NCBI GenBank assembly: GCA_035294265.1
Contig: DATGLK010000010.1
Coordinates: 126,858 to 190,857, forward strand
Source of the DNA: Candidatus Binataceae bacterium
GTDB lineage: Bacteria; Desulfobacterota; Binatia; Binatales; Binataceae
DNA: 64,000 bases
Reading direction: 5' to 3'
A program made the translations under genes and the position numbers. Below are positions 17,462 through 60,409 of the stretch, piece by piece (position 1 is the first letter of the stretch; each line of letters begins with the position of its first letter). Under the pieces are notes generated by a model. The model saw only the letters and a list, made by a program, of their open reading frames with translations. It was not told where the DNA came from and did not search any database.

Positions 17462-17506
17462 CCGATGCTTCCTCGAGGTGGAAACTGTCCCGGGCTAAAG
17501 CGCCGG

Positions 17507-18805: not shown

Positions 18806-18897
18806 CTGGCTCCCTCCCACAGATTGTTCACCGAGCCCGCCAAACCCTGTCGGCCCGAGGGCTTAGATGCTCCGGCGCTTGGCAGCGGCAGTTCTGT

Positions 18898-20160: not shown

Positions 20161-20246
20161 CGCCAAGTCCTCCACTCGCTGCAGCCCGGAGTATCCGCCG
20201 GGCGCAAAATTCGACGTTTCGCTACATTGGCCGCCTGGCCCTCGCG

Positions 20247-29071: not shown

Positions 29072-29244
29072 TACGTCTCCTCCCGTGGGTCTTCGGCGAC
29101 CGCATCCCCGCTGGTGGGTTTGGCGAGGAACTAGCACGAACGGCAGGCTTATCGCCAGCGCCGCGCACCGAAGCGCACGCCGATGGCGCCGCCGGTCGCG
29201 GAGTGCTAAGCAACATCGGACAGTTGGCTTCGGAGGCGGTCATC

Positions 29245-43094: not shown

Positions 43095-43109
43095 TCTCTC
43101 ATCCGTCCG

Positions 43110-45198: not shown

Positions 45199-45211
45199 CG
45201 CCTTGTCCCCT

Positions 45212-47490: not shown

Positions 47491-47505
47491 CGAGTTCTCT
47501 CCCCG

Positions 47506-48645
47506 CTAGCGCAGGCTCGCCAAGTAGGCGACCACCTGATTCAGATCGGCGGGCGACAGGTTCATCGCCGGCATTAGCACGTCGGGCTTGATGGTAGCTG
47601 GGTTGTCAACCCACACATGCAGATGGGCCGGGCTATTGAGCGCAGCGCCCGCGCCAATGGTGGCACGACTCATAAGGTGAGTCAGATCGGGACCAAAACG
47701 GCCATTGGCAACGGTGCCACGGATAGTATGGCAATTGACGCAGGCGGTGTGAAGGAACAGTTGGCGACCCGCCGCGGTACTGGCATCACGCAACGCCGGA
47801 CGCTGCTGCGCCGCCACCCACTGAGCGAACTGGGCGGGCGGCTGCGCGACCACCCGGATCAGCATCAACGCGTGCTCGCTGCCGCAAAACTCCCCGCATT
47901 GCCCCAGGTAGGTCCCCGCCCGATGGGGATCGATCCACATCTCATTGCGCCGATTGGGGATAACGTCGGTCTTGCCCGCCAACCGCGGCACCCAAAAGCT
48001 GTGCGCGACGTCAGCCGACTCCAAGGTCAGCAAGGTCGGCCGAGGATGGGCCGGATCGCTCACTGGAACGTGCAACTCGTTGGCCGTGACAATCCCCAGG
48101 CTGGGATAGCGAAATTCCCACCACCATTGATGGCCGATCACACGCACCCGCAACGCATCGGTCGGTTGCGGCGCCGCGTGCACGATGTAGATGGTGCGCC
48201 CGGTGATCAAAGTCAGCACAAACGCAATCAGCACCGGCAGCGTGGTCCAGGCAAGCTCGATCGGATTACTGCCGTAAACCTGGGGCGGCTCGCGACCGTC
48301 ATCGCCGGCGCGCTGGCGGTAGCGAATAATCGCGTAGCTCAGCAGGCCAGCCACCACCAGAAAGATTGCGCCGGTAATACTGAGTACGAAATAGGCCAGA
48401 TGCGCGATCGCCGCGGCCGGGGTCGCAACTGGCGCAAAGATGTTGTTGGGCATCAGCTTGGCGTTGGCGGCGCCGGTGCCCCAATCCTGGCCCCAGGCCA
48501 TCGCCACCCGCGCCAGGATGGTCATGCTCGCAAGCGCGGCGGCGGCCCGCCTTCCAAACCCACGCGCCGTCAAATCACGCTCCGCTGGCGCCCCGGATCC
48601 GCGCCCGGCTGTCGGGCCATTGCTCGCCGCGGTTGGAGGTCGCAC
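47506..48645 (-). CDS. ctaC: Cytochrome c oxidase subunit II with C-terminal cytochrome c domain (caa3-type); start uncertain
   Basis: CuA site (H...CGEFCGSEHALM). C-terminal CVNCH heme-c motif. The longest ORF starts at a GTG; an internal ATG (48525) is an alternative. Confidence 0.8.
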   Translation of the reverse strand: MRPPTAASNGPTAGRGSGAPAERDLTARGFGRRAAAALASMTILARVAMAWGQDWGTGAANAKLMPNNIFAPVATPAAAIAHLAYFVLSITGAIFLVVAGLLSYAIIRYRQRAGDDGREPPQVYGSNPIELAWTTLPVLIAFVLTLITGRTIYIVHAAPQPTDALRVRVIGHQWWWEFRYPSLGIVTANELHVPVSDPAHPRPTLLTLESADVAHSFWVPRLAGKTDVIPNRRNEMWIDPHRAGTYLGQCGEFCGSEHALMLIRVVAQPPAQFAQWVAAQQRPALRDASTAAGRQLFLHTACVNCHTIRGTVANGRFGPDLTHLMSRATIGAGAALNSPAHLHVWVDNPATIKPDVLMPAMNLSPADLNQVVAYLASLR

Positions 48646-48776: not shown

Positions 48777-49736
48777 TCAGGCCGCGAACATCTCTTCGGG
48801 CTCGTACAAGCGGCTCACCAGTCCCTGCTCGTAGGCATAATGCAGTCCCATCGCGATCGCCTTGCGATTATCGGGCACCTGCAGGCCGTATTCGTCGGGA
48901 AACAGGTCCAATTCGCGCAGCAAGCGGGCCGCTGTTCCCATGTGCTCGTGCTCCTCGCCGCGCTCGAACTGGGCGTGATAATGACGGCGTGCCTGTTGGC
49001 AAACGGCCAGGAGATCGCGGGCCAAGTCGGGATATTCGCGCAGCGCCGATTGCTTGAGTGTGATTAAGGTGTTGAGGGGAAAGACCCCGGTGGCTCGCAC
49101 ATAGGCGCGAATCTCGGCGTCGGGGTCGGCGAACAGGCGCGCGGTCTGTGCGGTGGGAGGTGGACCACCGCCAGCGGCGGCGATCGCATCGACCTCGCCG
49201 CGCTCCAGCGCCCTATGAGCGTTGGGCAGACCGCGCACCGGCCGCTCCACGATCGCGCTCTTTTCGATCCAATAACGGCGCGGCCGCGGGTACTCCAGCC
49301 CGCTCATGTCCTCGTGATCCTCCACCCAGTGAATGCGCTCGCACGCGATGTCGTACTGATGGGTCAGGATGCCGCGCAACCACATCGCGTAGTTGACCCC
49401 GAAGCTGACCATCCCAATTCGCTTGCCCACCAGGTCGGCGGGCGTGTGGATATTGGCGCTCTTGTGCACCATCAGGCCGTAATGAGGAAAGAAGCGGCTG
49501 GGGAAGGCCGCGATCGCGGTCAGCGGCTGGCCGCGGTCACGCGCAATGACGTAGTTGCTAAAGCTCTGCTCGGCGATATCGTGCGAGAGCTTGGTGATCA
49601 TATCGACGAACAACGGCCAGGGGGCGGGACCAATCTCGGAGAGCTCGAGCACGTCGGGCACCTTGACCGTGCCGTCGAGCAGGAAGCGAGTGTCGTAACG
49701 ACGGGCAAGGGGAAAACTAAGTTTCGTCATCGGCAT
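48777..49736 (-). CDS. 4,5-dihydroxyphthalate decarboxylase family protein (NMT1/THI5-like fold)
   Basis: Resembles Pht5/PhtD-type decarboxylases (TKLSFPLARRYDTRFLLDG, AAFPSRFFPH, NYAMWLRGIL, EEMFA). Assignment from memory, not searched. Confidence 0.55.
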   Translation of the reverse strand: MPMTKLSFPLARRYDTRFLLDGTVKVPDVLELSEIGPAPWPLFVDMITKLSHDIAEQSFSNYVIARDRGQPLTAIAAFPSRFFPHYGLMVHKSANIHTPADLVGKRIGMVSFGVNYAMWLRGILTHQYDIACERIHWVEDHEDMSGLEYPRPRRYWIEKSAIVERPVRGLPNAHRALERGEVDAIAAAGGGPPPTAQTARLFADPDAEIRAYVRATGVFPLNTLITLKQSALREYPDLARDLLAVCQQARRHYHAQFERGEEHEHMGTAARLLRELDLFPDEYGLQVPDNRKAIAMGLHYAYEQGLVSRLYEPEEMFAA

Positions 49737-49855
49737 ACTCCAAGTCGGGGCTAAGCGCCGTACCAGACAGTCATTTCTACTTACGCAGGAACCGGCGGCT
49801 TGGCAAATCCGTGGACCGTTGACACCTTGTCAGGCTTTGCACACAGTTGCACATC

Positions 49856-51382
49856 ATGCGCTACGGCTTCGTGATCGACCAGGAACGCTGCATCGGATGC
49901 CATGCCTGCACGGTGGCCTGCAAGGAAGAGCACAACGTCCCGGTGGGCGTGTTTCGGACCTGGGTCAAGTACATCGAGAAGGGAACTTTCCCCGCGGTAC
50001 AACGCCATTTCGGCGTGATGCGGTGCAATCACTGCGACAACGCGCCCTGTATAGAGATCTGTCCGACCAAGGCGCTCTTTCGCCGCGACAACGGTGTGGT
50101 CGATTTCGACTCGCAGCGCTGCATCGGCTGCAAAAGCTGCATGCAAGCCTGTCCCTACGACGCCCTCTATATTGATCCAGCAAGTCACACCGCCGCCAAG
50201 TGCAATTTCTGCGCTCATCGCCTGGAGCTCGATTTGGCGCCCGCCTGCGTCATCGTCTGTCCCACCCATGCGATTATCGCCGGTGATTTGGACGCGCCCG
50301 AAAGCGAGATCGGCCGCACCGTCGCCAGCCGCCAGGTGGTCAGCCGCAAGCCCGAAAAGGCCACCCAGCCCAAGCTTTTTTACATAGGGATCGACGGCGA
50401 CCTGCTCAACCCCGGCGCGCCCGCGGCGCAGCCTACTTACCTGTGGGCCGACAAACAAAAAGATGGAAATATCTACACTTTGTCGACTGACGAGGCGACG
50501 CTGCCGCCCGCCGGCTCGCGTGAAGTCTATAACGTCTCCCATCCAGCCCCCTGGGGCGCCAAAATCGCCGCCTACCTGTGGACCAAGTCGATCGCGGCGG
50601 GTGTCACGCTGGTGGCGGCCCTGCTGATGGGGCTTAAGGTCGCAGACCAGGCGCGGCTGTTTGGAATCGCCACCCCCGCGCTGGCCTTGGGATGGAGCGC
50701 GCTCACCGGATTGCTGCTTACCATCGACCTCAAGCGGCCCGAACGCTTTTATTTCCTGCTGACGAAATCGAATTTCAGATCCTGGCTGGTCCTGGGAGCT
50801 TATTTTTTGGGCGGTTACGGCCTGTGCGCCATGGCATGGCTGATTGTAGGGCTATTCGCTCTCGAACCTCCCGCTTGGCTGATCGGACTGACGGCGTTGA
50901 TGGCGATCGGCACTGCGGCTTATTCGGGCTTCCTGTTCGCTCAGGCCAAGGGGCGCGATTTGTGGCAATCGCCGCTTTTCCCCTGGCATCTGGTGATCCA
51001 GGCGCTGGTCGCGGGCGCCGCGATGCTCATCATGTTCGCGGTCGCCGTCGGTTCGGACCGCTTGCTGGGAGCATTGCAAGCCGTCCTGGCCACGGCGCTG
51101 GTGCTGGACCTGCTGATGGTTCTAACCGAAGTCTACGCCGTGCCGCATAACCAGGACGCGCGCCTCGCGGTAGATTTGTTGAAGAGCGGCACGCTGGCCA
51201 AGCGGTTTTGGGGCGGCGCAGCCGGTTTGGGCGTGGTTGTGCCGCTGTTTGCGATGGCGATGGGCGCGAGCTTCGGCGGCGCGGTAGTGGCCGCGCCGCT
51301 CGCCGCCGCTGCCGCGTTGGCCGGCCTGTGGCAATACGAATTACTGTGGCTGGCGGCCGGGCAGGCCGCACCCTTGAGCTAG
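49856..51382 (+). CDS. 4Fe-4S ferredoxin-type electron-transfer subunit fused to an NrfD/PsrC-like integral membrane anchor (CISM family)
   Basis: Four Cys clusters (CIGCHACTVAC, CNHCDNAPCIEICP, CIGCKSCMQACP, CNFCAHR...CVIVCP) followed by about 8 TM helices. No signal peptide. ATG at 49856 preferred over the ORF-finder TTG at 49847. Confidence 0.75.
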   Translation: MRYGFVIDQERCIGCHACTVACKEEHNVPVGVFRTWVKYIEKGTFPAVQRHFGVMRCNHCDNAPCIEICPTKALFRRDNGVVDFDSQRCIGCKSCMQACPYDALYIDPASHTAAKCNFCAHRLELDLAPACVIVCPTHAIIAGDLDAPESEIGRTVASRQVVSRKPEKATQPKLFYIGIDGDLLNPGAPAAQPTYLWADKQKDGNIYTLSTDEATLPPAGSREVYNVSHPAPWGAKIAAYLWTKSIAAGVTLVAALLMGLKVADQARLFGIATPALALGWSALTGLLLTIDLKRPERFYFLLTKSNFRSWLVLGAYFLGGYGLCAMAWLIVGLFALEPPAWLIGLTALMAIGTAAYSGFLFAQAKGRDLWQSPLFPWHLVIQALVAGAAMLIMFAVAVGSDRLLGALQAVLATALVLDLLMVLTEVYAVPHNQDARLAVDLLKSGTLAKRFWGGAAGLGVVVPLFAMAMGASFGGAVVAAPLAAAAALAGLWQYELLWLAAGQAAPLS

Positions 51383-51388
51383 GTGCCA

Positions 51389-54229
51389 ATGAAGACCAGC
51401 GACTATCCCGCGCCTCTCAATCCCGCAGTAAGCGATCTGGCGCCAGCCAACGAGTTGGCAAATTTTCCGCCCTCCTCGCGTTGGGAGGATTGGAGCGAAT
51501 ACGACCCCGCGAGTTGGCCGCGCAAGGTCAAGCGCGCCTACACCCTGGTGCCGACCATCTGTTTTAATTGCGAAGCCGGATGCGGCCTGCTGGCGTATGT
51601 CGATCCGGCGGCGATGAAGATCCGCAAGTTCGAGGGCAACCCCGAGCATCCCGGCAGCCGCGGCCGCAACTGCGCCAAGGGGCCGGCGACCCTTAACCAG
51701 GTCACCGATCCCGAGCGCATCCTGTATCCGATGCGCCGGGCGGGCGCACGCGGCACCGGCCAATGGGAGCGGGTCAGTTGGAATGAGGTGCTCGACGATC
51801 TGGCGGCGCGCATTCGCAGCGCACTGATCGAGAAGCGCCACAACGAAATCGTCTATCACGTTGGGCGGCCCGGCCATGAGCTGATTTACAACCAGCGCAT
51901 CCTTCATTCATGGGGGATCGACGGCCACAACAGCCACACCAATGTCTGCTCGGCGGGCGCGCGAACCGGTTACGCCTTCTGGCACGGTATCGATCGCCCT
52001 TCGCCCGATCATGCCAACGCCCGCTTTATCCTGCTGCTGAGCTCTCATCTGGAGGCCGGCCATTATTTCAATCCCCATGCCCAGCGGATTATCGAGGGCA
52101 AGCAGCGCGGCGCAAAGGTGTGCGTGATCGACACCCGGCTGTCCAACACCGCGGCCAAGGCCGATTACTGGCTGGCAACCTGGCCCGGCAGCGAGGCGGC
52201 GGTGCTGTTGGCAATGTGCCAGGTGCTGCTCAGCGAAGGGCTCTACGATCGCGACTTCGTGCGCCGCTGGGTCAATTGGGAAGAATTCATGCGCGAGGAG
52301 CGGCCCCATGTGCCGCCCACCTTCGACAATTTCATCGCCGAGATAAAGCAGCTTTACGCCGAATTCACCCCGGAATTCGCCGAGCGCGAATCGGGCGCGG
52401 CGGCGGCGACAATCGTCGCGGTGGCGCGCGAGATCGGCCGCGCCGGCTCCGCCTTCGCCACCCATGTCTGGCGCAACGCGGCGGCGGGAAACCTAGGCGG
52501 ATGGCAGGTGGCGCGGGCGCTGGAATTTCTGGTCGTGTTGGTGGGCGCGGTGGCCACTCCGGGCGGTACCCATCCGGCCGCAGCCAACAAATTCATCCCG
52601 ACGCCGCCGCTGATGCCGCCGCCGCCCAAAATCTGGAATGAAACGATGTGGCCGCGGGAGTTTCCTCTGGCCTTCTTCGAGATGAGCTTCCTGCTGCCCC
52701 ATTTCCTCAAAGATGGGCGCAGCAAGCTGGCGATATACTTCTCGCGCGCCTACAACCCGGTGTGGACCAATCCCGACGGCCTGTCCTGGATCGAGGCGCT
52801 CAGCGACGAAAGCAAGGTCGCACGCCACGCCTGCCTGACGCCGATTTGGAGCGAAACTGCCTGGTTTGCCGATTATGTCTTGCCGATGGGCCATGCCTCG
52901 GAGCGCCACGATCTGCTCAGCCAGGAGACTCATGCCGCGCGCTGGATCGGCTTTCGCCAGCCCGTCCTGCGCGTGGCCTTGGAACGCCAGGGCAAGCGCT
53001 TTCCCACCACTTGGGAAGCCCATCAGGCGGCCGGCCTGGGCCAGGTGTGGGAAGAGGACGAATTCTGGATCGAGCTGTCCTGGCGGATCGACCCCGACGG
53101 CGCCCTGGGCATCCGCCGCTACTTCGAGTCGCCCTACCAACCCGGAGTCAAGCTCACGCTGGATGACTACTATAGCTGGATCTTCGAGAACAGCGTCCCC
53201 GGCCTACCCCAAGCCGCGGCCAAGCAGGGACTGACGCCGCTTGGCTACATGCGCAAGTACGGCGCCTTTCTGGTCGAGGACCAGGTTTATAGCACCCACG
53301 AAACCGCGCCGGCCGCGCATGGCGAAACCGAGGTCGATCGAACCACCCGCATAGTCACCCAAGCCGGCACACCGATCGGCGTTGAGATCGACGGCGCGCG
53401 CCATGTCGGTTTTCCCACTCCCTCGCGCAAGCTGGAGTTTTATTCCAAGACGCTGAAGGACTGGAAGTGGCCCGAGTACTCGGTCCCGACCTACATCCGC
53501 AGCCATGTCCATTGGTCGCAGATCGATGCCGCAAAGGGCGAGATGCTGCTGCTGCCCACTTTTCGCCTGCCCACCCTCGTCCACACCCGCTCGGCCAACG
53601 CCAAGTGGTTATACGAAATTTCCCATAAAAACCCGCTGTGGCTGCATCCGCGCGACGCTATCCGCCTGGGTGTGCGCACCGGCCATCTGCTCAAGGTGCA
53701 AACCGAGATCGGCTATTTCGTCGATCGAGTGTGGGTCACCGAGGGTATCCGCCCCGGCGTCATTGCCTGTTCCCATCACCTCGGCCGTTGGCGGCTGGCA
53801 GCCGATAAGGGAGGCGAGCGCTGGGCCAGCGCGCTGGTGGATCTGAAGCAGGCCGAGCCTGGGCGCTGGCTGATGCGCCAAATAACGGGCATCCAGCCCT
53901 TTGCCAGCGCCGATCCTGATTCGCAGCGGGTGTGGTGGCAGGACGCCGGGGTCCATCAAAATCTGACCTTTCCAGTGCAGCCCGACCCCGTCAGCGGCCA
54001 ACACTGCTGGCATCAGAAGGTCGTGGTAACGCGACCCGCACCCGAGGACCGCTACGGCGATGTCTTCGTCGATACCGATCGCGCCCATGAAGTGTATCGG
54101 CGTTGGCTCAAGCTGGCGCGCCCGGCGCCCGGCCCCGACAACCTGCGCCGCCCCTTATGGCTGGCGCGGGTCTATCGGCCCGACGCTTCCGCCTTCGTGA
54201 TTCCAACAACCGGCAGCGAGGCCCCGTAG
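51389..54229 (+). CDS. Molybdopterin (bis-PGD, DMSO-reductase family) oxidoreductase catalytic subunit, no Tat signal
   Basis: N-terminal FS0 cluster motif (CFNCEAGCG...NCAKG). MopB domain. About 60-aa N-terminal extension without an RR motif. ATG with AGGTG ribosome-binding site, immediately after the Fe-S/NrfD gene stop. Confidence 0.8.
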   Translation: MKTSDYPAPLNPAVSDLAPANELANFPPSSRWEDWSEYDPASWPRKVKRAYTLVPTICFNCEAGCGLLAYVDPAAMKIRKFEGNPEHPGSRGRNCAKGPATLNQVTDPERILYPMRRAGARGTGQWERVSWNEVLDDLAARIRSALIEKRHNEIVYHVGRPGHELIYNQRILHSWGIDGHNSHTNVCSAGARTGYAFWHGIDRPSPDHANARFILLLSSHLEAGHYFNPHAQRIIEGKQRGAKVCVIDTRLSNTAAKADYWLATWPGSEAAVLLAMCQVLLSEGLYDRDFVRRWVNWEEFMREERPHVPPTFDNFIAEIKQLYAEFTPEFAERESGAAAATIVAVAREIGRAGSAFATHVWRNAAAGNLGGWQVARALEFLVVLVGAVATPGGTHPAAANKFIPTPPLMPPPPKIWNETMWPREFPLAFFEMSFLLPHFLKDGRSKLAIYFSRAYNPVWTNPDGLSWIEALSDESKVARHACLTPIWSETAWFADYVLPMGHASERHDLLSQETHAARWIGFRQPVLRVALERQGKRFPTTWEAHQAAGLGQVWEEDEFWIELSWRIDPDGALGIRRYFESPYQPGVKLTLDDYYSWIFENSVPGLPQAAAKQGLTPLGYMRKYGAFLVEDQVYSTHETAPAAHGETEVDRTTRIVTQAGTPIGVEIDGARHVGFPTPSRKLEFYSKTLKDWKWPEYSVPTYIRSHVHWSQIDAAKGEMLLLPTFRLPTLVHTRSANAKWLYEISHKNPLWLHPRDAIRLGVRTGHLLKVQTEIGYFVDRVWVTEGIRPGVIACSHHLGRWRLAADKGGERWASALVDLKQAEPGRWLMRQITGIQPFASADPDSQRVWWQDAGVHQNLTFPVQPDPVSGQHCWHQKVVVTRPAPEDRYGDVFVDTDRAHEVYRRWLKLARPAPGPDNLRRPLWLARVYRPDASAFVIPTTGSEAP

Positions 54230-54480
54230 CCTCAACTCTGCCGTTCTTAACCGAGCCGTGGCGCAGCCGGCGTGGAACTTATATCGGCCAGCCGCAATTG
54301 CACGGATGGGAGGAGGTTGGGTGAGGCGGCCGAGCTATCGGCGGGCTCGCTGATACCGGTCAGTTCTTCGACCGCTTCTTCGCCCACGGCCAGAACTGCG
54401 ACCGTTCCGAAAATCAAGATTGCTACAAGTAAGAAGGCGGCGCCGGCAGACAACTCGCCGGACATCAGATTGCGCCAAAA

Positions 54481-56043
54481 TTGCTTCATAACGCTGGCTA
54501 TCCCTGCCCTCAAAACTATCTCTTGCGCGCGGGACAGAAAACCCACCCCTTGGTGCGCGCTTCCCAGCTTGTGCCCGGCGGCGAAACGGAGCATGTAACG
54601 GAGACAGGCGCGCGGATTGCGGCCGTAGCCAGCGCGTTGGAAAGGGTCAACCTTACGGTGGAAGCGGGATCGACGCCGCGCGCGCAGCCGGCACATGATT
54701 ACCAAATCGCGGCACGCCTGGAGCGGCTGCCGATTGCCAGGTGGCATACCCGGGTCCGCTTGGTGGTGGGTTTTGCCTGGTTTTTCGACTCCTTCGATGC
54801 GCTGGCGATCGCTTACGTCTTGCCAGTGTTGGTGCCGCTATGGAAGCTCAACCCGGTTCAGATCAGTAGCCTTATCGCAATTGGTTATGCCGGCCAGGCA
54901 CTGGGCTCGGTCTATTTCGGTTATACGGCGGAGCGGCGTGGCCGGATTCCGGCCTTGCTGTGGTCGGTTGCGCTCTTTTCGGTCACCAGTCTGCTGTGTG
55001 CCGCGGTCTGGAGTTACACGTTACTGTTGACCATTCGCTTCGTGCAGGGCCTGGGGCTGGGCGGCGAAATCCCCGTTGGCCATTCCTACATGAACGAAAT
55101 CGCCAAGGCCAGTCAGCGCGGCCGCTTCATTTTGCTCTATCAACTATCGGCGCCGCTGGGCATCAGCGCGTCAGCCCTGGCCGGGGTCTGGATCGTTCCC
55201 AATCTGGGTTGGCAATGGATGTTCGTGCTGGGCGCGGTCCCGGCCCTGATTATGCTGCCCTTGATCGCGGGCTTGCCCGAATCACCCCGTTGGTTGGCCA
55301 GCCGCAGTCAAGTGGTCGAAGCCGACCGCGTGCTGAGCAAGATAGAAGCCGCGATTTCCGACCACGGCCTCCGCCCTTTGCCGCCGATTCCCGAGCGGGC
55401 GCCCGCGGTCGTAGCCGCCTCCACTCGCTTCAGCGATCTGCTCCGAGGGATATATCTGCGCCGCACGCTGGTGGTGTGGTCGATCTATTTCTGTACCTAC
55501 CTGGTAACTTACGGACTGACCGGCTGGCTGCCCACGATTTACCGGACGGTCTATCACCTATCGGTTCGCCAAGCACTCAATTTCAGTTTCATCACGACGC
55601 TGGTCTCGTTGGCGGGATCGCTGGCGGTCGCGCTTCTGATCGATCATACCGGCCGCAAGCCATGGATTAGCGCTGCCCTCATCCTGGGTGCGCTCCCGTT
55701 GTTCGTCCTCACCGGCAGCGCTTCGATGAGCGCAAACCGGGTGCTGATCCTGGTGGCGTTGGGACTGACAGGAGTGAACACGGTGGCGCTTGCGATGGGC
55801 ATGTACACGGCGGAAAACTACCCCACCCACTTGCGCTCGCTGGGTGGCGGCGTGGCCGCGGCATGGTTGCGCGTGGCCGCGATGATCGGTCCCTACGTGG
55901 TGGGATTTGTGCTGCCGGCGGCCGGGATGGGCGCGGTGTTCTCTGTCTTCGGCGGCTCGGCGTTGCTAGGTGGGCTTATCTGCATGCGGTTTGCGATCGA
56001 GACTCGCAACCGCGTGATGGAAGAGCTGGCGCCGGTAGTTTAG
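54481..56043 (+). CDS. MFS transporter (aromatic-acid/H+ symporter-like); start uncertain
   Basis: 12-TM MFS layout with motif A-like GRRGRIP. The ORF-finder start is TTG. The true start is probably an internal GTG around 54598-54658. Confidence 0.65.
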   Translation: MLHNAGYPCPQNYLLRAGQKTHPLVRASQLVPGGETEHVTETGARIAAVASALERVNLTVEAGSTPRAQPAHDYQIAARLERLPIARWHTRVRLVVGFAWFFDSFDALAIAYVLPVLVPLWKLNPVQISSLIAIGYAGQALGSVYFGYTAERRGRIPALLWSVALFSVTSLLCAAVWSYTLLLTIRFVQGLGLGGEIPVGHSYMNEIAKASQRGRFILLYQLSAPLGISASALAGVWIVPNLGWQWMFVLGAVPALIMLPLIAGLPESPRWLASRSQVVEADRVLSKIEAAISDHGLRPLPPIPERAPAVVAASTRFSDLLRGIYLRRTLVVWSIYFCTYLVTYGLTGWLPTIYRTVYHLSVRQALNFSFITTLVSLAGSLAVALLIDHTGRKPWISAALILGALPLFVLTGSASMSANRVLILVALGLTGVNTVALAMGMYTAENYPTHLRSLGGGVAAAWLRVAAMIGPYVVGFVLPAAGMGAVFSVFGGSALLGGLICMRFAIETRNRVMEELAPVV

Positions 56044-56198
56044 TTCTGCTTGCCGGCGCGCGCGCTTTTTCTGCATCCAATCCAGTTGGCGCAGCGCTTG
56101 AGAGGGCGCTACTGTAGGCAGAGTTTTCGCTGTCCGCCGCGCGCGGTGGACACAAGCTATTTCTCAATCCACCGCTGACCAAGGAGAGCGAAGGACGC

Positions 56199-57236
56199 AT
56201 GAAAGTAGATGTTTATCCGCATATTTTTCCGCGGGCCTTCTTTGACAAGATGGTCGAAGTCGCACCCGACAAAAACGCAATCAAGCGCTGGCTGAATATC
56301 CCGGTGCTCTATGATCTGGACGCCCGCCTGCGGATGATGGACGAGTTCCAGGAGTACCAGCAAATCCTGACCCTGTCCCTGCCCGCCATTGAATTCATCG
56401 CGCCGCCTGACGGCTCGCCTGAGCTGGCGCGAATCGCCAACGACGGGATGGCCGACATCTGCCGCCGTTATCCCGACCGCTTCCCGGCCTTTGCCGCTTC
56501 GCTGCCGATGAACAACGTGCCTGCGGCACTGGCCGAGATGGAGCGCGCGATCGATCAGCTGGGTGCGCGCGGCATCCAGATTTTCACCAACGTCAACGGC
56601 CGGCCCCTCGACGACCCCGAATTCGCCCCCATCTTCGAGCGCATGCAGGCCTACGACCTGCCTATCTGGATGCATCCCACGCGCGGGCCGGGCATGACCG
56701 ATTATGCCAGCGAGCCCAAGTCCAAGTACGAGTTGTGGTGGCTATTCGGCTGGCCCTACGAAACCTCGATCGCAATGGGGCGGATGGTGTTCTCGGGCTT
56801 CTTCGATCGCTGGCCCAACATGAAGCTGATAACCCATCACCTGGGCGCGATGGTGCCGTTTTTGGAGCAGCGCATCGCCTTGGGAATGGATCAGCTTGGC
56901 ACCCGCACGGCGGAAGTGGATTATACCACCATCGTCAAGGAGATGAACGCCAAGGGCAGACGGCCGGTGGATTACTTCCGCATGTTCTACAACGATACCG
57001 CGGTCAATGGGTCTCGGTCGGCGATCCGTTGCGGGCTGGATTTCTTCGGCGACGACCATGTCCTGTTCGGCACCGATTGTCCCTTCGATCCCGAGGGTGG
57101 CCCCACTTTCATCCGCGAGACCATTCGCGCGATCGACGGGCTCAAGCTCAAGAAGGCGGAGCTGGCCAAACTTTACAGCGACAATGCCTACAAGTTGCTC
57201 AAAATGGCGCCGCCCAAGCGGCGAGGCAGGAAGTAG
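56199..57236 (+). CDS. Amidohydrolase-2 family enzyme (ACMSD/LigW-like decarboxylase/hydrolase)
   Basis: ATG after AAGGAG. Collinear with ACMSD-type proteins (MKVDVYPHIFP ... HHLGAMVPF ... FGTDCPFD). Confidence 0.75.
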   Translation: MKVDVYPHIFPRAFFDKMVEVAPDKNAIKRWLNIPVLYDLDARLRMMDEFQEYQQILTLSLPAIEFIAPPDGSPELARIANDGMADICRRYPDRFPAFAASLPMNNVPAALAEMERAIDQLGARGIQIFTNVNGRPLDDPEFAPIFERMQAYDLPIWMHPTRGPGMTDYASEPKSKYELWWLFGWPYETSIAMGRMVFSGFFDRWPNMKLITHHLGAMVPFLEQRIALGMDQLGTRTAEVDYTTIVKEMNAKGRRPVDYFRMFYNDTAVNGSRSAIRCGLDFFGDDHVLFGTDCPFDPEGGPTFIRETIRAIDGLKLKKAELAKLYSDNAYKLLKMAPPKRRGRK

Positions 57237-57338
57237 TCTGGCGCGGGCCGCGGATGCCGACATCCCCGGCCCACCCTTTTTTGCCTCGGCTGGCGACGCG
57301 CATTAGACTGAACGGACCAATATTCCGAGGTGGGCGCC

Positions 57339-58340
57339 ATGGCTCGAATTGTCGCTGGTATTGGCACCTCTCACAGCCCGGTCCTGGTTATCAAACCGCA
57401 ACTTTGGCCCGAGCGGGTCAAGCGTGAGATGAACAGCCAAGATCTCTACGACCGCACCGGCCGGCGCGTGAGCTATGTCGAACTGGAGCGCCAAGTAGAG
57501 CGCCGCTACGCGCCACTGGCGACGGTGGAAAATTTCGTCGGCTTGGACAGTAGCGCGCAGCGCGCGCTCGACCGTTTGGCTGACGACATGGCCGAGATCG
57601 ATCCAGATGTAGTGGTGATTATCGGCGACGACCAGGACGAGTTATTCGGGATGGACAATCTGCCGGCGTTGGCTATCTGTTATGGCTCGACCATTAGCAC
57701 CGAATGGTCGTCTTTTCCGCCCGGCGACGAGCAATGGGTGCTCGACGTCAAGCGAGGTTACGGCGTGGACGGCCATCATGAATTCGCCGGTGCGCCCGAG
57801 GCCGCGCGAAGTCTAATCGAACATCTGATCGAGCAGGGAATCGACGTTGCCGCCAGCAGCGGGGTGCCGCCAACCTCCAAACATGGCGGCTTCGGCCACG
57901 CCATCACCTTTCCGATCATCCGCCTGATGCGCAAGCGGCAGATTCCGGTGGTGCCGGTTCTGCTCAATACCTATTATCCACCCAACCAGCCCACTCCGGC
58001 GCGTTGCTTCGATATCGGGCGGGCGATGCGAACGGCGCTCGAAGCCTGGCCTGAGCCGGCACGCGTGGTGGTGATGGCTTCAGGCGGCCTGAGCCATTTT
58101 GTCACCGACGAATGGCTGGACCGAACGCTATTGGACGCGCTGCGCGACGGCGACGAGTACACTCTGCGTACCATCCCGGCCAAGCTGCTCAATTCGGGCA
58201 ATTCCGAAATTCGCAACTGGATCATGATGGCGGGCGCGATTGCTGGCCTGAACTTCACCATGCGCTGGCACGAGTACGTGCCGATCTATCGCAGCCCTGC
58301 GGGCACCGGAATCGGCCTGGGCTTCGGCCGCTGGAACTAA
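57339..58340 (+). CDS. Extradiol ring-cleavage dioxygenase, class III (LigB family)
   Basis: N-terminus MARIVAGIGTSHSP matches the LigB-type MARVTTGITSSHIP. Motifs VVIIGDDQDE and SGGLSHF. ATG after GAGGTG. Confidence 0.75.
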   Translation: MARIVAGIGTSHSPVLVIKPQLWPERVKREMNSQDLYDRTGRRVSYVELERQVERRYAPLATVENFVGLDSSAQRALDRLADDMAEIDPDVVVIIGDDQDELFGMDNLPALAICYGSTISTEWSSFPPGDEQWVLDVKRGYGVDGHHEFAGAPEAARSLIEHLIEQGIDVAASSGVPPTSKHGGFGHAITFPIIRLMRKRQIPVVPVLLNTYYPPNQPTPARCFDIGRAMRTALEAWPEPARVVVMASGGLSHFVTDEWLDRTLLDALRDGDEYTLRTIPAKLLNSGNSEIRNWIMMAGAIAGLNFTMRWHEYVPIYRSPAGTGIGLGFGRWN

Positions 58341-58353
58341 GGCCGGCCCGCGG

Positions 58354-59379
58354 CTACTTCAGCCCGTACAGGGTGCGGGCGTTGGTGGCAAACAGCTTGC
58401 GCTTGCTCTGCTCCGACAGGTCGGTGCGCTCGGCCAACTCATGGATGTTCTCCGGGTACTCGGAGTCCCAGTGTGGGATGTCGGAGGCAAAAACCAGGAT
58501 CTCGTCACCGAAGCGGCGCACCATCTCGGCGATCGATTGCTCGCCCGCCTCCAGGCCGAAGTAAATATTGCCCTGGCGCAGATAATCACTGGGCTTGCGC
58601 CGGCATTTGGGTGCCTCCAGCTTCCCTCGCAGCTCCCATTCCTCGTCCATCCGATCGATCCAGAAAGGCACCCAGGTACAGCCAGCTTCCATGAAGCCCA
58701 GCTTGAGTTTGGGAAACTGCTCGGGTACGCCGCGAAAAATCATCGAGGCGAACTGGGTCATCTGGGCAAAAGCGTGGGAGAGAGTGTGGACTTCGATGAA
58801 ATTGTCGAAGATATCGGCGCCGAAGTATTGAGGTCCGCGCACGGTGGCATGCGAGGCCAGCATGCAGTTAAGCCGCTCGGCCTCGGCATATACCGGCCAG
58901 TACATTTCGTGACCCAGGGGATGACGTAGACCCACCGAGGGCAGCATCGCGCCCACCATCCCAAGCTGCTCAACCGCACGGCGCAGTTCGCGCACGGCGG
59001 CGGAAACATCCTGCATCGGCAGCAGAGCGATCCCCTTCAGACGTGAATCGCGTCGCGTGTACTGTGCGTGGAAGAAATCGTTGTAGGCGCGGCACAAGGC
59101 AGCGGCAAAATCGGCCTCTCGAATCCAGCCGATGCTCAGCCCCTGGGTGGGAAAAAGCACCGCTATTTCCATCGGTCCGCGCTTCATCGCCTCCAGCCAA
59201 TCCTCGGGCGTGCGCACATTGTGGCCTAGGCTGCCCCGCACCGAACGATCCCAGGCGTCGGTGGGATAGTAGGAACGAAACCCCTGCGATGGGCCGTACT
59301 CGCGAAAGGCGGGCTCCATGTATTCGGCCAGTGCCGCGGTGCCCTCGTTGATATGGCCGTCAGCATCAATTATTTCCAT
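58354..59379 (-). CDS. Amidohydrolase-2 family enzyme
   Basis: ATG after GGAAGGA. MEIIDADGHINE ... HAT ... FASDIPHWD motif set. Confidence 0.75.
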   Translation of the reverse strand: MEIIDADGHINEGTAALAEYMEPAFREYGPSQGFRSYYPTDAWDRSVRGSLGHNVRTPEDWLEAMKRGPMEIAVLFPTQGLSIGWIREADFAAALCRAYNDFFHAQYTRRDSRLKGIALLPMQDVSAAVRELRRAVEQLGMVGAMLPSVGLRHPLGHEMYWPVYAEAERLNCMLASHATVRGPQYFGADIFDNFIEVHTLSHAFAQMTQFASMIFRGVPEQFPKLKLGFMEAGCTWVPFWIDRMDEEWELRGKLEAPKCRRKPSDYLRQGNIYFGLEAGEQSIAEMVRRFGDEILVFASDIPHWDSEYPENIHELAERTDLSEQSKRKLFATNARTLYGLK

Positions 59380-59548
59380 CGCTGTTTCCTTCCAATTGAG
59401 GTGGTTGCGGCGCCGAGCCGGCTTGGTTTGACGCTAATCCGCCCTCGCGCGCGCCGTCAAGAGAGTCGGCATGCTTGGGGCGGCGCTCGACGCGGCGGTC
59501 ATCGGCAACTAAGGTTCCCAATGAGCACAGCGCTGCGGAGGTTCGAAC

Positions 59549-60409
59549 ATGGCGCTATTTTTGGACTACGAGCAGGAAGCCCTCGATCGCCAACTCGAGC
59601 CGCGCACGGGGGTGGCCGATTTGGAGCGCGCGATGGCGCGTAATGGCGAGCTCGCGGCAGCGGCCTTGCGGCTTCGCACGGCGGTTGATGTAAGTTACGG
59701 CCCCCGCGAATTGGAGAAATTAGACCTCTACGCTGCCTCTCGGTCGGGCGCGCCGATCTTGATTTTTTGCCATGGTGGCGGTTGGCAGGCGCGCAGCAAA
59801 GAGGACGCTGCTCTGCTGGCGCCAGCCTTGATGGCGGCCGGGATAAGTCTGGTCACCCTCGACTTCGAGCCGGTCTCGGCGCACGGCCTGGAGCAGATGG
59901 TCGCCCAGATCCGCCGCGCGATCGCCTTCATCTATGCCAACGCCGCGGCCTGGGGCGCCGACCCGTCCAACTTGCATATCGCCGGCCATTCCTCGGGCGC
60001 CCACCTGGCCGCGATGCAATTGGCGGACGGTTGGCAGGCGGCATTGGGCTTGCCTACCGATACCATCAAAAGCGCTGTATTGCTCAGCGGCCTATACGAT
60101 CTCGAGCCGGTGCGACTGAGTTTTCGCAACCAGGCCTTGAAACTCGACGCGCAAAGCGCACGCAGCTTGAGTCCGCTGTACCAGCTCGGACATCCTCGCC
60201 CGCTCATCGTAGCCTGGGGAGATTTGGAAACCGAGGAATTTCAGCGTCAGTCACATGTGTTGGCCGCAGCCGCCACTAGCGTCGGCTTCACGGTGGACTC
60301 GGGCGCCCAGCCACACTGCCATCACTTCAATATCATGCAGGCCGTAATCCAACCCGACGGCTCTTTGTACCGGCGTCTGCTGACTCAGCTCAACATTTCT
60401 CGGTTATGA
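59549..60409 (+). CDS. Alpha/beta-hydrolase fold-3 esterase (HGGG / GxSxG serine hydrolase)
   Basis: FCHGGGWQ oxyanion motif. Nucleophile elbow GHSSG. ATG after GGAGG. Confidence 0.7.
   Translation: MALFLDYEQEALDRQLEPRTGVADLERAMARNGELAAAALRLRTAVDVSYGPRELEKLDLYAASRSGAPILIFCHGGGWQARSKEDAALLAPALMAAGISLVTLDFEPVSAHGLEQMVAQIRRAIAFIYANAAAWGADPSNLHIAGHSSGAHLAAMQLADGWQAALGLPTDTIKSAVLLSGLYDLEPVRLSFRNQALKLDAQSARSLSPLYQLGHPRPLIVAWGDLETEEFQRQSHVLAAAATSVGFTVDSGAQPHCHHFNIMQAVIQPDGSLYRRLLTQLNISRL

Follow-up and report, generated by a model that had tools for sequence, protein, structure and literature searches.

In Sphingobium SYK-6, the DDVA cluster contains ligZ, ligY, ligXa, and ligW together with the transporter gene ddvK (PMC6874591; PMC12997858). 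Among NrfD-type complexes, SoeABC is the only one described with its peripheral subunits on the cytoplasmic side (review, PMC8076601), and the hallmarks of the arylformamidase AFMID are an HGGXW motif and a Ser/Asp/His triad (PMC5848607). Here, we report that eight genes at positions 48777–60409 of a 64,000-nucleotide stretch of a Candidatus Binataceae chromosome (the window, i.e., the whole stretch analyzed) are best explained as several separate units rather than as a single aromatic-acid pathway, their juxtaposition being lineage-specific; we give this reading a probability of about 0.6.

Gene content and order

All eight genes named in the initial annotation are present, each with a significant family match. 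They had been placed on alternating strands; both strands are indeed used, but the series is − + + + + + − +, which is not a strict alternation. Downstream of the MFS gene the order is Amidohydro_2, LigB, Amidohydro_2. The term "island" finds no compositional or mobility sign: GC is flat across the stretch, and the interval at 48–61 kb is free of Rfam and tRNA matches. No regulator, ferredoxin, or reductase gene was found within 48777–60409, and promoter and terminator scans of the stretch were at chance level, with no shared promoter detected. Domain content, motifs, fold, Tat-signal absence, and neighbor statistics are what the analysis shows directly. Only one relative (L004, 92% identical) retains the complete series Mo pair–MFS–Amidohydro_2–LigB–ARO–esterase.

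A cytoplasm-facing molybdoenzyme module

Unit 1 (49856–54229, plus strand) is the molybdoenzyme pair. The gene at 49856–51382 (+) encodes a 508-aa fusion (Pfam Fer4_11 and NrfD) in which a PsrB/TtrB/SoeB-like ferredoxin subunit with four [4Fe-4S] clusters is joined to a membrane anchor of the NrfD/PsrC type that interacts with quinone, and it has four Cys groups and ∼8 hydrophobic segments at residues 240–490; the gene at 51389–54229 (+) encodes the 946-aa bis-MGD catalytic subunit (Pfam Molybdop_Fe4S4, Molybdopterin, and Molydop_binding), in which the N-terminal [4Fe-4S] (FS0) motif spans C58..C95. Two ORFs of 253 and 152 aa that overlap the fusion were rejected as the Mo partner, having no family matches and low third-position GC. 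The pair had been listed as a "Mo-hydroxylase"; Pfam and PDB matches instead assign it to the bis-MGD (DMSO reductase) type and not to the xanthine-oxidase type. The top PDB matches of the catalytic subunit are ArrA and PsrA/thiosulfate reductase, and neither transhydroxylase nor xanthine-oxidase types occur among its best PDB matches. A twin-arginine (RR) motif is found in 0 of 120 Mo-subunit homologs, and the fusion matches the TtrB profile only from profile position 43, indicating that the Tat leader is missing. Since both proteins are without Tat signals, the active site is predicted to face the cytoplasm.

The catalytic subunit has a 100% identical match in a Candidatus Binataceae MAG and many homologs at 75–80%, and it is 58% identical to a pRHL3 protein of Rhodococcus jostii RHA1. 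The pair is present as annotated. It is found repeatedly as a two-gene module of its own, the fusion adjoining the Mo subunit at 57–87% identity in L001–L006, and its flanks change: the gene after the pair is of the CMD family in L001, L005, and L006 and is replaced by other genes in L003. On pRHL3 the order is DsrE/DsrF/DsrH-like, TusA, FeS/NrfD, the Mo homolog, and then Mrp/NBP35. The surroundings, with persulfide-dioxygenase-like genes, include three MBL-fold hydrolases, two ArsR regulators, one thioredoxin, and one CMD gene. The Thermomicrobium module is immediately preceded by a gene for a CsoR-like regulator. No DsrE/TusA or persulfide dioxygenase gene adjoins the module in this window. 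By analogy, the module is probably a SoeABC-like sulfite:quinone oxidoreductase with a SoeA-like catalytic subunit. Electrons would pass from the bis-MGD subunit through FS0 and the four [4Fe-4S] clusters to the NrfD-type anchor and quinone; the most likely reaction would oxidize sulfite, or else a related sulfur oxyanion, with quinone to give sulfate and quinol, and the quinol could supply the adjacent bc-aa3 chain.

An orphan PhtD-family gene

The gene at 48777–49736 (minus strand; Unit 4) encodes an NMT1/THI5-like protein (Pfam NMT1, E 2.7e-9), whose membership in the 4,5-dihydroxyphthalate decarboxylase (PhtD) family, as first annotated, holds: its sole significant PDB match is 9jp7, a 4,5-dihydroxyphthalate decarboxylase (E 1.2e-21), over the full length (residues 6–317 versus 26–339). 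The protein has no signal peptide and is cytoplasmic. The gene is divergent from the molybdoenzyme module, lies upstream of same-strand cytochrome oxidase genes, and has a 91% identical ortholog in L004. Relatives at 26–28% identity are found 83 bp (L062) and ∼1.8 kb (L088) from LigB-like genes; neither a phthalate dioxygenase nor a dihydrodiol dehydrogenase lies near the gene here. We regard it as an orphan candidate, its product being a putative non-oxidative hydroxy-aromatic-acid decarboxylase.

A candidate aromatic-acid operon

The MFS transporter gene (MFS_1/Sugar_tr; 54481–56043, plus strand; Pfam MFS_1, E 1.6e-46) scores 218 bits against TIGR00895 (aromatic acid/H+ symporter), under the cut-off of 418, and 123 bits against the PcaK model; as judged from sequence, the product is related to aromatic acid/H+ symporters. 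Its counterpart in L004 is a 467-aa gene call, 94% identical, and the real start codon probably lies close to 54.6 kb. The first amidohydrolase-2 gene follows (56199–57236, plus strand; PF04909, E 1e-35). Its product falls in the ACMSD/LigW/resorcylate-decarboxylase branch, in line with the initial mention of the LigW/ACMSD superfamily, and matches PDB entry 3ij6 at 5e-49 and LigW, γ-RSD, and ACMSD all at ∼1e-28 to 1e-29. Its family comprises 669 representative clusters at E<1e-30; the invariant residues are D4, H8, R43, H159, W185, H213, R225, and D293, with F/Y at the position of the first HxH histidine. We read the protein as a putative non-oxidative decarboxylase, with a hydratase as the other possibility; its step would come before or after the ring is cleaved.

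The third gene (57339–58340, plus strand; Pfam LigB, E 3e-22) encodes a single-subunit class III (LigB-fold) extradiol dioxygenase of ∼330 aa. The three genes share one strand with gaps of 155 and 102 bp. Structural modeling, which had been proposed as a check, produced an AF2 model with a pLDDT of 90.6, and Foldseek returned LigB (1bou_B; E 6e-18, TM 0.73) and DesB; among solved structures, those closest in fold are LigB, DesB, MhpB, and aminophenol 1,6-dioxygenase. The conserved residues are H12, H187, H253, and E290; Gln99 takes the position of LigB His61. We then considered the four-gene neighborhoods of LigB-family relatives in 80 genome loci, 74 of which were analyzable. At least one of three neighbor types was present in 45 of these 74 (LigXa-like oxygenase, 26; RraA-like aldolase, 26; LigY/LigJ-like Amidohydro_2, 20), and the Amidohydro_2 adjoining the relatives matches LigY (5vn5, E 7e-90). 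Orthologs of the window's first Amidohydro_2 were absent from the 80 loci, which gave only ∼26%-identity matches. Fold matches and neighbors in the 80 genomes thus back the aromatic, ring-cleaving clade originally assigned to this gene; by sequence and model, the protein is a predicted class III extradiol ring-cleavage dioxygenase with a LigZ/DesZ-like genomic context.

Four tandem oxygenase paralogs (16208–21506, minus strand, outside 48777–60409) all carry Pfam Rieske and LigXa_C domains and have an identical Rieske stretch in common. On another Binataceae contig (L007), a 66% LigB-like ortholog directly adjoins three oxygenases with 60% identity to this array, and the paralogs are 58–61% identical to the L007 oxygenase at 7113–8372. 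This synteny makes the proposed link to the upstream array reasonable, but ∼27 kb, occupied by genes for housekeeping, efflux, and respiration that are unrelated to such a route, lies between the array and our stretch.

Substrates, reaction order, operon structure, and coupling between units are what we infer from these data. Unit 2 (∼54.6–58.3 kb) would form a small operon for aromatic-acid use, in which the MFS symporter may take up an aromatic acid bearing hydroxyl or methoxyl groups, the ACMSD/LigW-type Amidohydro_2 may decarboxylate it before cleavage (LigW-like) or act on the ring-fission product (ACMSD-like), and the LigZ/DesZ-like dioxygenase would cleave the ring. The window has no genes for the later steps, which would call for a hydrolase or hydratase of the LigY/LigJ type and an aldolase of the RraA/LigK type; Unit 3 or the four LigXa-like paralogs 27 kb upstream could carry out prior oxygenation or O-demethylation.

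An amidohydrolase-related oxygenase and an esterase

The second amidohydrolase-2 gene (58354–59379, minus strand; Pfam Amidohydro_2, E 8e-34) is convergent with the LigB gene and divergent from the esterase gene. The best PDB matches of its product are the ARO structures 8sm9, 8sm7, 8sm8, and 8sm6, AibH2 (6m1w), and PtmU3; N-terminal D7-G-H9 and C-terminal D300-I-P-H-W-D305 agree with the published ARO motifs, and H177 and E231, invariant in 20 subfamily members, align to the remaining ligand positions. By this complete signature the protein is not a hydrolase or decarboxylase, the role given to it in the initial annotation, but a dinuclear (Fe2 or Mn/Fe) oxygenase of the amidohydrolase-related type (ARO), putatively an O2-dependent C-H hydroxylase or dealkylase. 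ARO-subfamily loci contain a D-2-hydroxyacid dehydrogenase (53 of 84) and a class II aldolase (32 of 84), neighbors which indicate aliphatic chemistry; together with the signature, they place this gene in a non-aromatic clade.

The serine hydrolase/esterase gene (59549–60409, plus strand; Pfam BD-FAE, 1.3e-18, and Abhydrolase_3) is present as annotated, with a CHGGGW motif containing the HGGGW oxyanion element, a GHSSG nucleophile elbow (GHSSGAHLAAM), and HFNI. Its best NCBIfam match is the HSL-type HaHSL_fam (110 bits, under the model cut-off), and alignment with an approximate reference sequence of mouse AFMID gives 33% identity (121 bits). The product is likely an HSL-type esterase or possibly, as a lead only, an AFMID-type arylformamidase.

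In four other Binataceae-type lineages (L090/91/98/99, L096, L097, and L102), a LigB-superfamily gene of 260–265 aa adjoins the ARO ortholog, and in three of the four (not L097) an HGGG esterase is also there; these LigB and esterase genes are not orthologous to the window's copies. This repeated adjacency is our best lead. The divergent pair (Unit 3, 58354–60409) is probably accessory to Unit 2, i.e., ARO may hydroxylate or dealkylate the substrate and the HGGXW serine hydrolase may de-esterify or deformylate a precursor. The tie of Unit 3 to Unit 2 is the weakest step, and the restriction of the full gene order to the 92% relative means that conservation cannot prove their cooperation.

Alternative explanations

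The initial annotation joined the whole stretch and the upstream array into one aromatic-acid island with a phthalate-, gallate-, or protocatechuate-type route comprising a Mo-hydroxylase, the PhtD-like protein, LigB, and two amidohydrolase-2 enzymes. Its genes are all adjacent with their order kept in L004, the PhtD-family assignment stands, PhtD-like genes occur close to LigB-like genes in two loci, and the LigB family is tied to LigXa-like oxygenases; the LigB clade, the first Amidohydro_2, and the array link survive from it. The molybdoenzyme pair, the second Amidohydro_2, and the PhtD context do not: the Mo enzyme is bis-MGD, NrfD-anchored, and cytoplasm-facing, unlike xanthine-oxidase-type hydroxylases or pyrogallol transhydroxylase, and its pair is separate in other Binatia and sits among sulfur genes in RHA1, one Amidohydro_2 is an ARO oxygenase, and 27 kb of unrelated genes lie between the oxygenase array and the stretch. 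Phthalate dioxygenase and dihydrodiol dehydrogenase genes were not found in the stretch. For the Mo pair this proposal is largely refuted, and as a whole we hold it to be highly improbable.

Aminophenol and 3-hydroxyanthranilate dioxygenases cleave o-aminophenol-type acids, and in a kynurenine-like route an arylformamidase would deformylate an N-formyl precursor to an aromatic amine, ARO would hydroxylate this amine, the LigB-fold enzyme would cleave the resulting o-aminophenol-type acid, and the first Amidohydro_2 would be an ACMSD-like decarboxylase of the ring-fission product. The esterase motifs and AFMID similarity agree with this scheme, as do the aminophenol 1,6-dioxygenases among the fold matches and the first Amidohydro_2, which matches ACMSD as strongly as LigW or RSD and retains two invariant Arg, one Trp, and the HxGG His. 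We nevertheless find it quite unlikely: the AFMID comparison used an approximate reference sequence, the esterase's best NCBIfam match is HSL-type, the LigB-family context is LigXa/LigY/RraA and not amn or nba genes, and none of the window genes covered by the Pfam scans encodes a tryptophan dioxygenase, kynureninase, or deaminase. Somewhat less doubtful, yet still unlikely, is that the MFS, Amidohydro_2, LigB, ARO, and esterase genes are independent chance neighbors in a catabolically rich soil bacterium. The exact arrangement occurs in one close relative only, each gene's orthologs have different contexts elsewhere, and the scans gave neither regulator nor shared promoter; on the other side, the first three genes lie close together on one strand, LigB–Amidohydro_2 pairing recurs at family level (20–30 of 80 loci), and ARO–LigB-superfamily–esterase adjacency recurs in the four other lineages.

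Comparison with known systems

The preferred reading, several separate units brought together in one lineage, has likenesses in two described systems. The module of Unit 1 resembles SoeABC in being both NrfD-anchored and, as predicted, cytoplasm-facing. The LigXa, LigY, and RraA neighbors of the LigB-family relatives resemble the pattern LigX-LigZ-LigY-LigW seen in the biphenyl pathway of Sphingobium SYK-6; the window's enzyme differs from LigB itself at the second iron-ligand position, Gln99 here versus His61 in LigB, and its metal site and reaction may thus differ from those of LigB.

Gene content and surroundings of the stretch

Eight genes were called in 48777-60409 from a codon-position GC screen combined with the ORF list: a PhtD-like protein (48777-49736, minus strand), a fused 4Fe-4S/NrfD protein of 508 aa (49856-51382, plus), a molybdopterin subunit of ~946 aa (51389-54229, plus), an MFS transporter (54481-56043, plus, with its actual start near 54.6 kb), a first Amidohydro_2 protein (56199-57236, plus), a LigB-like protein (57339-58340, plus), a second Amidohydro_2 protein carrying the signature of an amidohydrolase-related dinuclear oxygenase, or ARO (58354-59379, minus), and an HGGG hydrolase (59549-60409, plus). 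By Pfam and NCBIfam, all eight match the families that the initial annotation had named, and none reaches the curated cut-off of an NCBIfam equivalog. Two further ORFs of 253 and 152 aa overlapping the FeS/NrfD gene gave zero family matches and are spurious. Promoter and terminator scans of the stretch returned matches at or below the shuffle expectation and hence are uninformative. A horizontally acquired island was considered and dropped on the flat GC level across the window, the absence of any mapped tRNA or Rfam family in the stretch, and the absence of an integrase; given the flat GC and the lack of Rfam or tRNA matches, "island" is to be understood as a cluster, not a mobile element.

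On the 5' side, a compact bc-aa3-type respiratory cluster (41640-48645, minus; cytochrome b/c fusion, Rieske, dihaem cytochrome c, COX3, COX1, and COX2-cytochrome c fusion) directly adjoins the PhtD-like gene and the putatively quinone-reducing Mo module. Farther upstream are genes for RND efflux, histidine, riboflavin and leucine biosynthesis, and DinB, and in total ~27 kb of unrelated genes lie between the stretch and an array of four tandem oxygenase paralogs of 417-467 aa with Rieske and LigXa_C domains in Pfam (16208-21506, minus). The same 23-residue Rieske stretch (CPHRCTSLALARNEDNALTCIFH) occurs unchanged in each of the four, which suggests recent duplication or gene conversion. A sulfite-oxidase-family molybdopterin-domain protein (15181-16170, plus; PF00174, E 2.6e-42) adjoins this array and is a second, unrelated Mo enzyme. 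The window also holds a third Amidohydro_2 paralog (27953-29137, minus), whose twin-arginine-like leader (SRRQMLAGMAALGATALG) suggests a periplasmic enzyme, and a fourth (14093-14986), which resembles the uncharacterised BB4693 (PDB ID: 3irs). Just downstream of the esterase, an HAE3/MMPL-type RND transporter (60567-62942, minus) and a heme-oxygenase-like Haem_oxygenas_2 protein, possibly a diiron oxidase (63053-63787, minus), are both kept in the 92%-identical relative; a TENA/Haem_oxygenas_2 protein is also found near the Mo module in another homologous locus (L003).

A putative dinuclear oxygenase next to the LigB-like gene

All components of the stretch are new members of known families, and discovery potential resides only in the association of ARO, LigB-like protein and hydrolase. 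AROs are defined by O2-dependent C-H hydroxylation at an Fe2 or Mn/Fe site; to our knowledge, few have a known function. The best solved relatives of the protein at 58354-59379 are the ARO structures 8sm6 to 8sm9, AibH2, and PtmU3. The ARO signature consists of an N-terminal D-x-H on strand 1 and a C-terminal D-x-P-H-x-[D/E] loop (PMC13154177). Both parts are present: IIDAD7-G-H9 aligns to IIDVDVH of 8sm7, with the D-x-H invariant in an alignment of 20 subfamily members, and in D300-I-P-H-W-D305 the D, P, H, W, and D are likewise invariant. H177 (ASHAT) and E231 (MEAGC), i.e., the mid-barrel His and the bridging carboxylate, fall at the AiHpg and vEGG positions when aligned to 8sm7, 8sm9, and 8sm6 and are invariant among the same 20 members. 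The DxPHxD motif was looked for, by test or alignment, in the window's three other Amidohydro_2 proteins and is missing from each. Because the ARO motifs and ligand positions are conserved, we annotate 58354-59379 as a putative dinuclear oxygenase. The initial annotation had read both amidohydrolase-2 enzymes as possible decarboxylases or ring-fission-product hydrolases; this stands for the first, which falls by PDB scores in the ACMSD/LigW decarboxylase branch, but not for the second, with its full oxygenase signature. A Rieske ferredoxin gene for the ARO was found nowhere in the window, where Rieske motifs are confined to the array of four LigXa-like oxygenases and one subunit of the bc complex; such a neighboring ferredoxin is typical of low-potential AROs, not of all AROs.

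The gene neighborhood of this clade varies. A divergent D-2-hydroxyacid dehydrogenase gene lies beside the ARO in 53 of 84 loci and a convergent class II aldolase gene in 32 of 84. A tight three-gene unit, in which a D-2-hydroxyacid dehydrogenase gene diverges from the ARO gene and a class II aldolase gene converges on it, is abundant in soil metagenomes, being seen in loci L118 and L140 (6808-9017) and ~50 other ARO loci, and may be a clue to the substrate class on which the clade first acted. In four other lineages whose AROs are 63-64% identical, a LigB-superfamily gene of 260-265 aa adjoins the ARO, accompanied by an HGGG esterase in three of the four and by luciferase-like monooxygenases nearby in some. 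Neither these LigB genes nor the esterase genes are orthologs of the window's, and orthologs of the window's LigB, esterase, MFS, and Amidohydro_2 genes were found among 80 ARO metagenome loci only on the contig of the 92% relative. That the same three families recur around the ARO clade is suggestive, not conclusive. Hydantoinase/oxoprolinase A and B genes adjoin a 67% ARO homolog in locus L095 (20-5599), and a Hydantoinase_B gene lies ~5 kb from a 63% homolog in locus L090 (13041-15065).

The LigB-like dioxygenase and its neighbors

The LigB-like protein (PF02900, E 3e-22) belongs to a family of ~330-aa single-subunit proteins with homologs of 44-66% identity in Proteobacteria, Actinobacteria, Chloroflexota, and Binatia. 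An extradiol dioxygenase of LigB type had been proposed, and structural modeling bears out the fold: an AlphaFold model built from 18 sequences (pLDDT 90.6, pTM 0.92) adopts the LigB fold, and its best Foldseek matches in the PDB are LigB, DesB, MhpB, homoprotocatechuate dioxygenase, and aminophenol dioxygenase; of the top 31 matches, all but the uncharacterised LigB-fold protein 5hee are ring-cleavage dioxygenases of LigB fold or the LigB-fold subunits of such enzymes. We take the iron site of LigB to be His12, His61, and Glu242, with His195 as the catalytic residue. In a profile alignment to LigB, His12, Glu242, and His195 correspond to H12, E290, and H253, all invariant in the LigB-like family. 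The His61 position is occupied by Gln99 and is Gln or Glu across the family, within a GDD[QE]xELF motif whose D97, D98, and E101 are invariant. Given this substitution, the metal site of the family may differ from the classical 2-His-1-carboxylate triad.

For neighbor statistics, genes within four positions of a LigB homolog were clustered, 74 of the fetched loci being analysable. LigXa-like Rieske oxygenases were found in 26/74 loci, or in as many as 36 at distances of up to 10 kb, RraA-like aldolases also in 26/74, LigY/LigJ-like Amidohydro_2 proteins in 20/74, and RidA-like proteins in 11/74; at least one of the LigXa-like, RraA-like, and Amidohydro_2 neighbors was present in 45 of the 74. 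The neighboring Amidohydro_2 proteins match LigY at E 7e-90 and LigJ at 1e-72. Three of 120 listed homologs, ~50% identical, carry a JGI label as 3-O-methylgallate 3,4-dioxygenase (two) or OH-DDVA oxygenase (one). On a further Binataceae contig (L007), a 66% LigB ortholog adjoins three oxygenases, the closest of which is ~60% identical to the window's array. The cluster for 5,5'-dehydrodivanillate (DDVA) in Sphingobium sp. SYK-6 contains ligZ, ligY, ligXa, ligW, and ddvK (PMC6874591, PMC12997858). With this pattern at the family level and the synteny on the second Binataceae contig, cleavage of an aromatic ring by the LigB-like gene product is well supported as a prediction. The proposed link to the upstream array is reasonable on the same synteny and the ~60% identity. 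A literature search for residue-level data on LigZ/DesZ found none.

The first Amidohydro_2 protein, PhtD-like protein, transporter and hydrolase

The first Amidohydro_2 protein (56199-57236; PF04909, E 1e-35) is equidistant from LigW, gamma-RSD, and ACMSD (E ~1e-28 to 1e-29), with IDCase also in the 1e-24 to 1e-29 range, and LigJ and LigY match at 1e-5 to 1e-6 only. Its closest solved relatives are thus decarboxylases, as expected of the ACMSD/LigW branch. The mononuclear metal site of that branch presumably comprises H/E-x-H on strand 1, a His on strand 5, and an Asp on strand 8, with the catalytic His on strand 6. The family of the window's protein (669 representative clusters at E<1e-30) keeps H8, H159, H213, D293, two Arg, and one Trp, and its first strand reads D-x-[FY]-x-H where H-x-H is expected, i.e., the first ligand position is Tyr or Phe. 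By analogy, the enzyme's step may precede ring cleavage, as for LigW, or follow it, as for ACMSD. In 80 LigB-family genome loci, the window's Amidohydro_2, MFS, esterase, and ARO genes have effectively no orthologs. The pairing of LigB with some Amidohydro_2 protein is common at the family level; the lack of an ortholog of 56199-57236 in these loci makes the pairing with this protein lineage-specific. The Amidohydro_2 gene beside a 59% LigB paralog (locus L008) gave no tblastn match at E 1e-5 to 56199-57236, and membership of both in one family was dropped.

The PhtD-like protein matches 4,5-dihydroxyphthalate decarboxylase (PDB ID: 9jp7) over its full length (E 1.2e-21, residues 6-317 versus 26-339), and its lack of a signal peptide is more in keeping with an enzyme of the cytoplasm than with a binding protein. 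Family membership, as claimed initially, is therefore supported, but phthalate genes are absent around it, its neighbors being COX2/COX1/COX3 and the Mo module. Weakly related PhtD copies lie 83 bp from the LigB-like gene in locus L062 and ~1.8 kb away in locus L088. Residue-level data on PhtD were sought in the literature, and none were found. For the MFS transporter, the top-scoring model is TIGR00895 (aromatic acid/H+ symporter) at 218 bits, below the cut-off of 418.55.

The hydrolase at 59549-60409 contains HGGGW, GHSSGAHLAAM (nucleophile GHS148SG), and HFNI motifs. It is 33% identical (121 bits) to a provisional reference sequence for mouse arylformamidase; in that alignment the acid position corresponds to Glu226, with Asp224 two residues off. 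AFMID hallmarks are the HGGXW motif and a Ser/Asp/His triad (PMC5848607). Curated models gave sub-threshold matches to HSL-type esterases, a loose placement, and a single-sequence AlphaFold model was unusable (pLDDT 43); for these reasons the arylformamidase-like assignment is only a lead.

The molybdoenzyme pair

The initial annotation had counted a Mo-hydroxylase in the pathway. This does not hold for the xanthine-oxidase type: the large subunit shows only the bis-MGD-type Pfam domains Molybdop_Fe4S4, Molybdopterin, and Molydop_binding, its partner has Fer4_11 and NrfD, and all PDB matches belong to the DMSO-reductase family, with ArrA and polysulfide/thiosulfate reductase closest. Among 48 PDB matches of the Mo subunit, neither a xanthine-oxidase-type enzyme nor pyrogallol transhydroxylase appeared, and ethylbenzene dehydrogenase was a weak partial match. 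An aromatic-acting enzyme of the pyrogallol transhydroxylase, resorcinol hydroxylase, or ethylbenzene dehydrogenase type was dropped because the transhydroxylase is missing from these matches and the synteny of the pair is independent of aromatic genes.

The pair has the makeup of a complex iron-sulfur molybdoenzyme, i.e., an FS0 motif (C58-x2-C-x3-C...C95), four Cys groups, and ~8 hydrophobic segments, the 508-aa partner joining a four-cluster ferredoxin domain to an NrfD domain of about eight such segments. Tat leaders are absent from both proteins: 0 of 120 homologs of the catalytic subunit carry an RR motif within their first 60 residues, and the TtrB profile match of the FeS/NrfD protein starts at profile position 43. 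Lack of Tat signals on the catalytic and FeS subunits marks the cytoplasmic orientation of SoeABC, the only NrfD-anchored complex that one review describes with its peripheral subunits at the cytoplasmic face (PMC8076601); both proteins agree with this. Instead of being two of three separate subunits, the SoeB-like and SoeC-like parts are fused, into a 508-aa protein in the window and likewise in all homologous loci that were inspected. NCBIfam holds no SoeA model, and the best match of the Mo subunit is PhsA (197 bits, below cut-off). A literature search on SoeABC in Binatia gave nothing useful. Based on these features, the pair is probably a SoeABC-like oxidoreductase that transfers electrons from sulfite, or a related oxyanion, to quinone and whose SoeB and SoeC portions are joined in one chain.

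A Candidatus Binataceae MAG encodes a protein 100% identical to the Mo subunit. The pair is intact in all five other Binatia contigs (MoA 75-92% identical, FeS/NrfD 57-87%) and its flanks vary, with a CMD-family gene next in three loci and other genes in a fourth; the window's gene order around it is kept only in the 92% relative among the five. Replicons of Thermomicrobium roseum, Rhodococcus jostii RHA1, and haloarchaea carry homologs of 52-63% identity. In RHA1 (L174, plasmid pRHL3, record 213189-234011; locus tags of the pair RHA1_RS43840/43835) the order is DsrE/F/H-like, TusA, FeS/NrfD, Mo subunit, and Mrp/NBP35, surrounded by three MBL-fold hydrolases, two ArsR regulators, a thioredoxin, and a CMD-family gene, and we read this neighborhood as one of putative sulfur oxidation or detoxification. 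In Thermomicrobium, a CsoR-like regulator gene is immediately 5' of the module, a suggestive sign of a sulfur context. Mrp/NBP35 also lies 3' of the module in Natrinema (L176). RHA1 is a known lignin and aromatic degrader with the same fused module, which makes it a tractable host for testing module function. Near the window's own module, sulfur-gene association is limited to an ArsR-family HTH-rhodanese fusion 8 kb off. This fusion (40838-41635, plus) is weakly similar to the sulfite-sensing BigR and may be a sulfur-responsive regulator. The Mo pair is unrelated to the aromatic genes of the stretch and is to be removed from the pathway.

Overall reading

A single aromatic pathway, as first proposed, survives in part. 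The credible part is a ring-cleavage core of LigZ/DesZ type together with a transporter and an ACMSD/LigW-type partner, but the Mo enzyme leaves the set on its DMSO-reductase family and independent synteny, and one amidohydrolase is a putative oxygenase by its ARO motifs; the pathway is incomplete within the window. Beyond this, we give a chance of roughly one in five to a wider reading. The Binataceae ARO clade (D-G-H, DxPHWD, without a Rieske ferredoxin partner) would be a hydroxylase or O-/N-dealkylase that prepares aromatics for LigB-superfamily cleavage, with an HGGXW hydrolase acting upstream. Separately, the fused FeS/NrfD and Mo module would be a widespread, uncharacterised sulfite dehydrogenase of SoeABC type in Actinobacteria, Chloroflexota, Binatia, and haloarchaea.

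If the wider reading is true, it would be the first aromatic-catabolism role for amidohydrolase-fold dinuclear oxygenases, and ring-cleavage substrates would be supplied by a route independent of Rieske, P450, and flavin enzymes. The ARO-LigB-hydrolase adjacency is a concrete lead to a natural ARO substrate class. The label "amidohydrolase family protein" hides a probable O2-activating two-metal oxygenase, and "molybdopterin-dependent oxidoreductase" hides a probable respiratory sulfite dehydrogenase; metabolic reconstruction in the uncultured soil phylum Binatia would go astray if either gene were taken as an aromatic-pathway part. The LigX/LigZ/LigY-type pattern in Alpha-, Beta-, and Gammaproteobacteria, Actinobacteria, Chloroflexota, and Binatia points to a spread of lignin-dimer-like cleavage modules far beyond the Sphingobium model.

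Comparison with known systems

The DDVA pathway of SYK-6 comprises the LigXa/c/d O-demethylase, the extradiol dioxygenase LigZ, the hydrolase LigY, the decarboxylases LigW/LigW2, and the transporter DdvK, clustered in that strain (PMC6874591, PMC12997858). The window resembles it in having Rieske and LigXa_C oxygenases, a ~330-aa LigB-fold dioxygenase, Amidohydro_2 proteins, and an inner-membrane transporter. LigXa-like and LigY-like neighbors as in SYK-6 are seen at the family level and on the second Binataceae contig, and the likeness to LigZ/DesZ is one of context. Unlike the SYK-6 cluster, the window lacks a LigY/LigJ-type Amidohydro_2, its oxygenases are 27 kb off and fourfold duplicated, and the adjacent Amidohydro_2 is distant from LigW (E 1.6e-29) with the first His of HxH lost. 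The PhtD-like protein shares the N-terminal YD-x-(T)R-x-L-x-DG-x-V motif with PhtD/Pht5/OphC, but similarity is low (E 1e-21), and genes for phthalate 4,5-dioxygenase, its reductase, and the dihydrodiol dehydrogenase are not nearby. By the same provisional reference, the esterase is like AFMID, an alpha/beta-hydrolase kynurenine formamidase, in HGGXW, the GHSxGAHLAAM elbow, the C-terminal HF(D/N)I His, and length, and differs from it in the acidic triad residue, which aligns as Glu or sits two residues away.

Like SoeABC of Allochromatium vinosum, Ruegeria pomeroyi, and Aquifex aeolicus, the Mo module combines a Mo-bisPGD subunit with one [4Fe-4S] cluster, a four-cluster FeS part, and an NrfD-like anchor, lacks Tat signals, and has a catalytic subunit of ~946 aa; unlike it, the FeS and NrfD subunits are fused. 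In Acidithiobacillus, soeABC is clustered with rhd-tusA-dsrE, which the RHA1 module with DsrE/TusA resembles. SoeC has been catalogued in Proteobacteria and Aquificae (PMC8076601), whereas homologs of the present module are found in Binatia, Thermomicrobium, Rhodococcus, and haloarchaea.

The window's ARO shares with SfbO, AibH2, PtmU3, and DitZ the PF04909 TIM barrel, D-x-H, D-x-P-H-x-D, the mid-barrel His, and the bridging Glu. A Trp follows the motif His, as in low-potential AROs, and a Ser lies two positions after this Trp, at the proposed ferredoxin-contact position. An invariant Gly between the N-terminal Asp and His sets its clade apart from the characterised AROs, which have Val/Ile, Ser, or Asp there, and its neighbors are a LigB-fold dioxygenase and a serine hydrolase.
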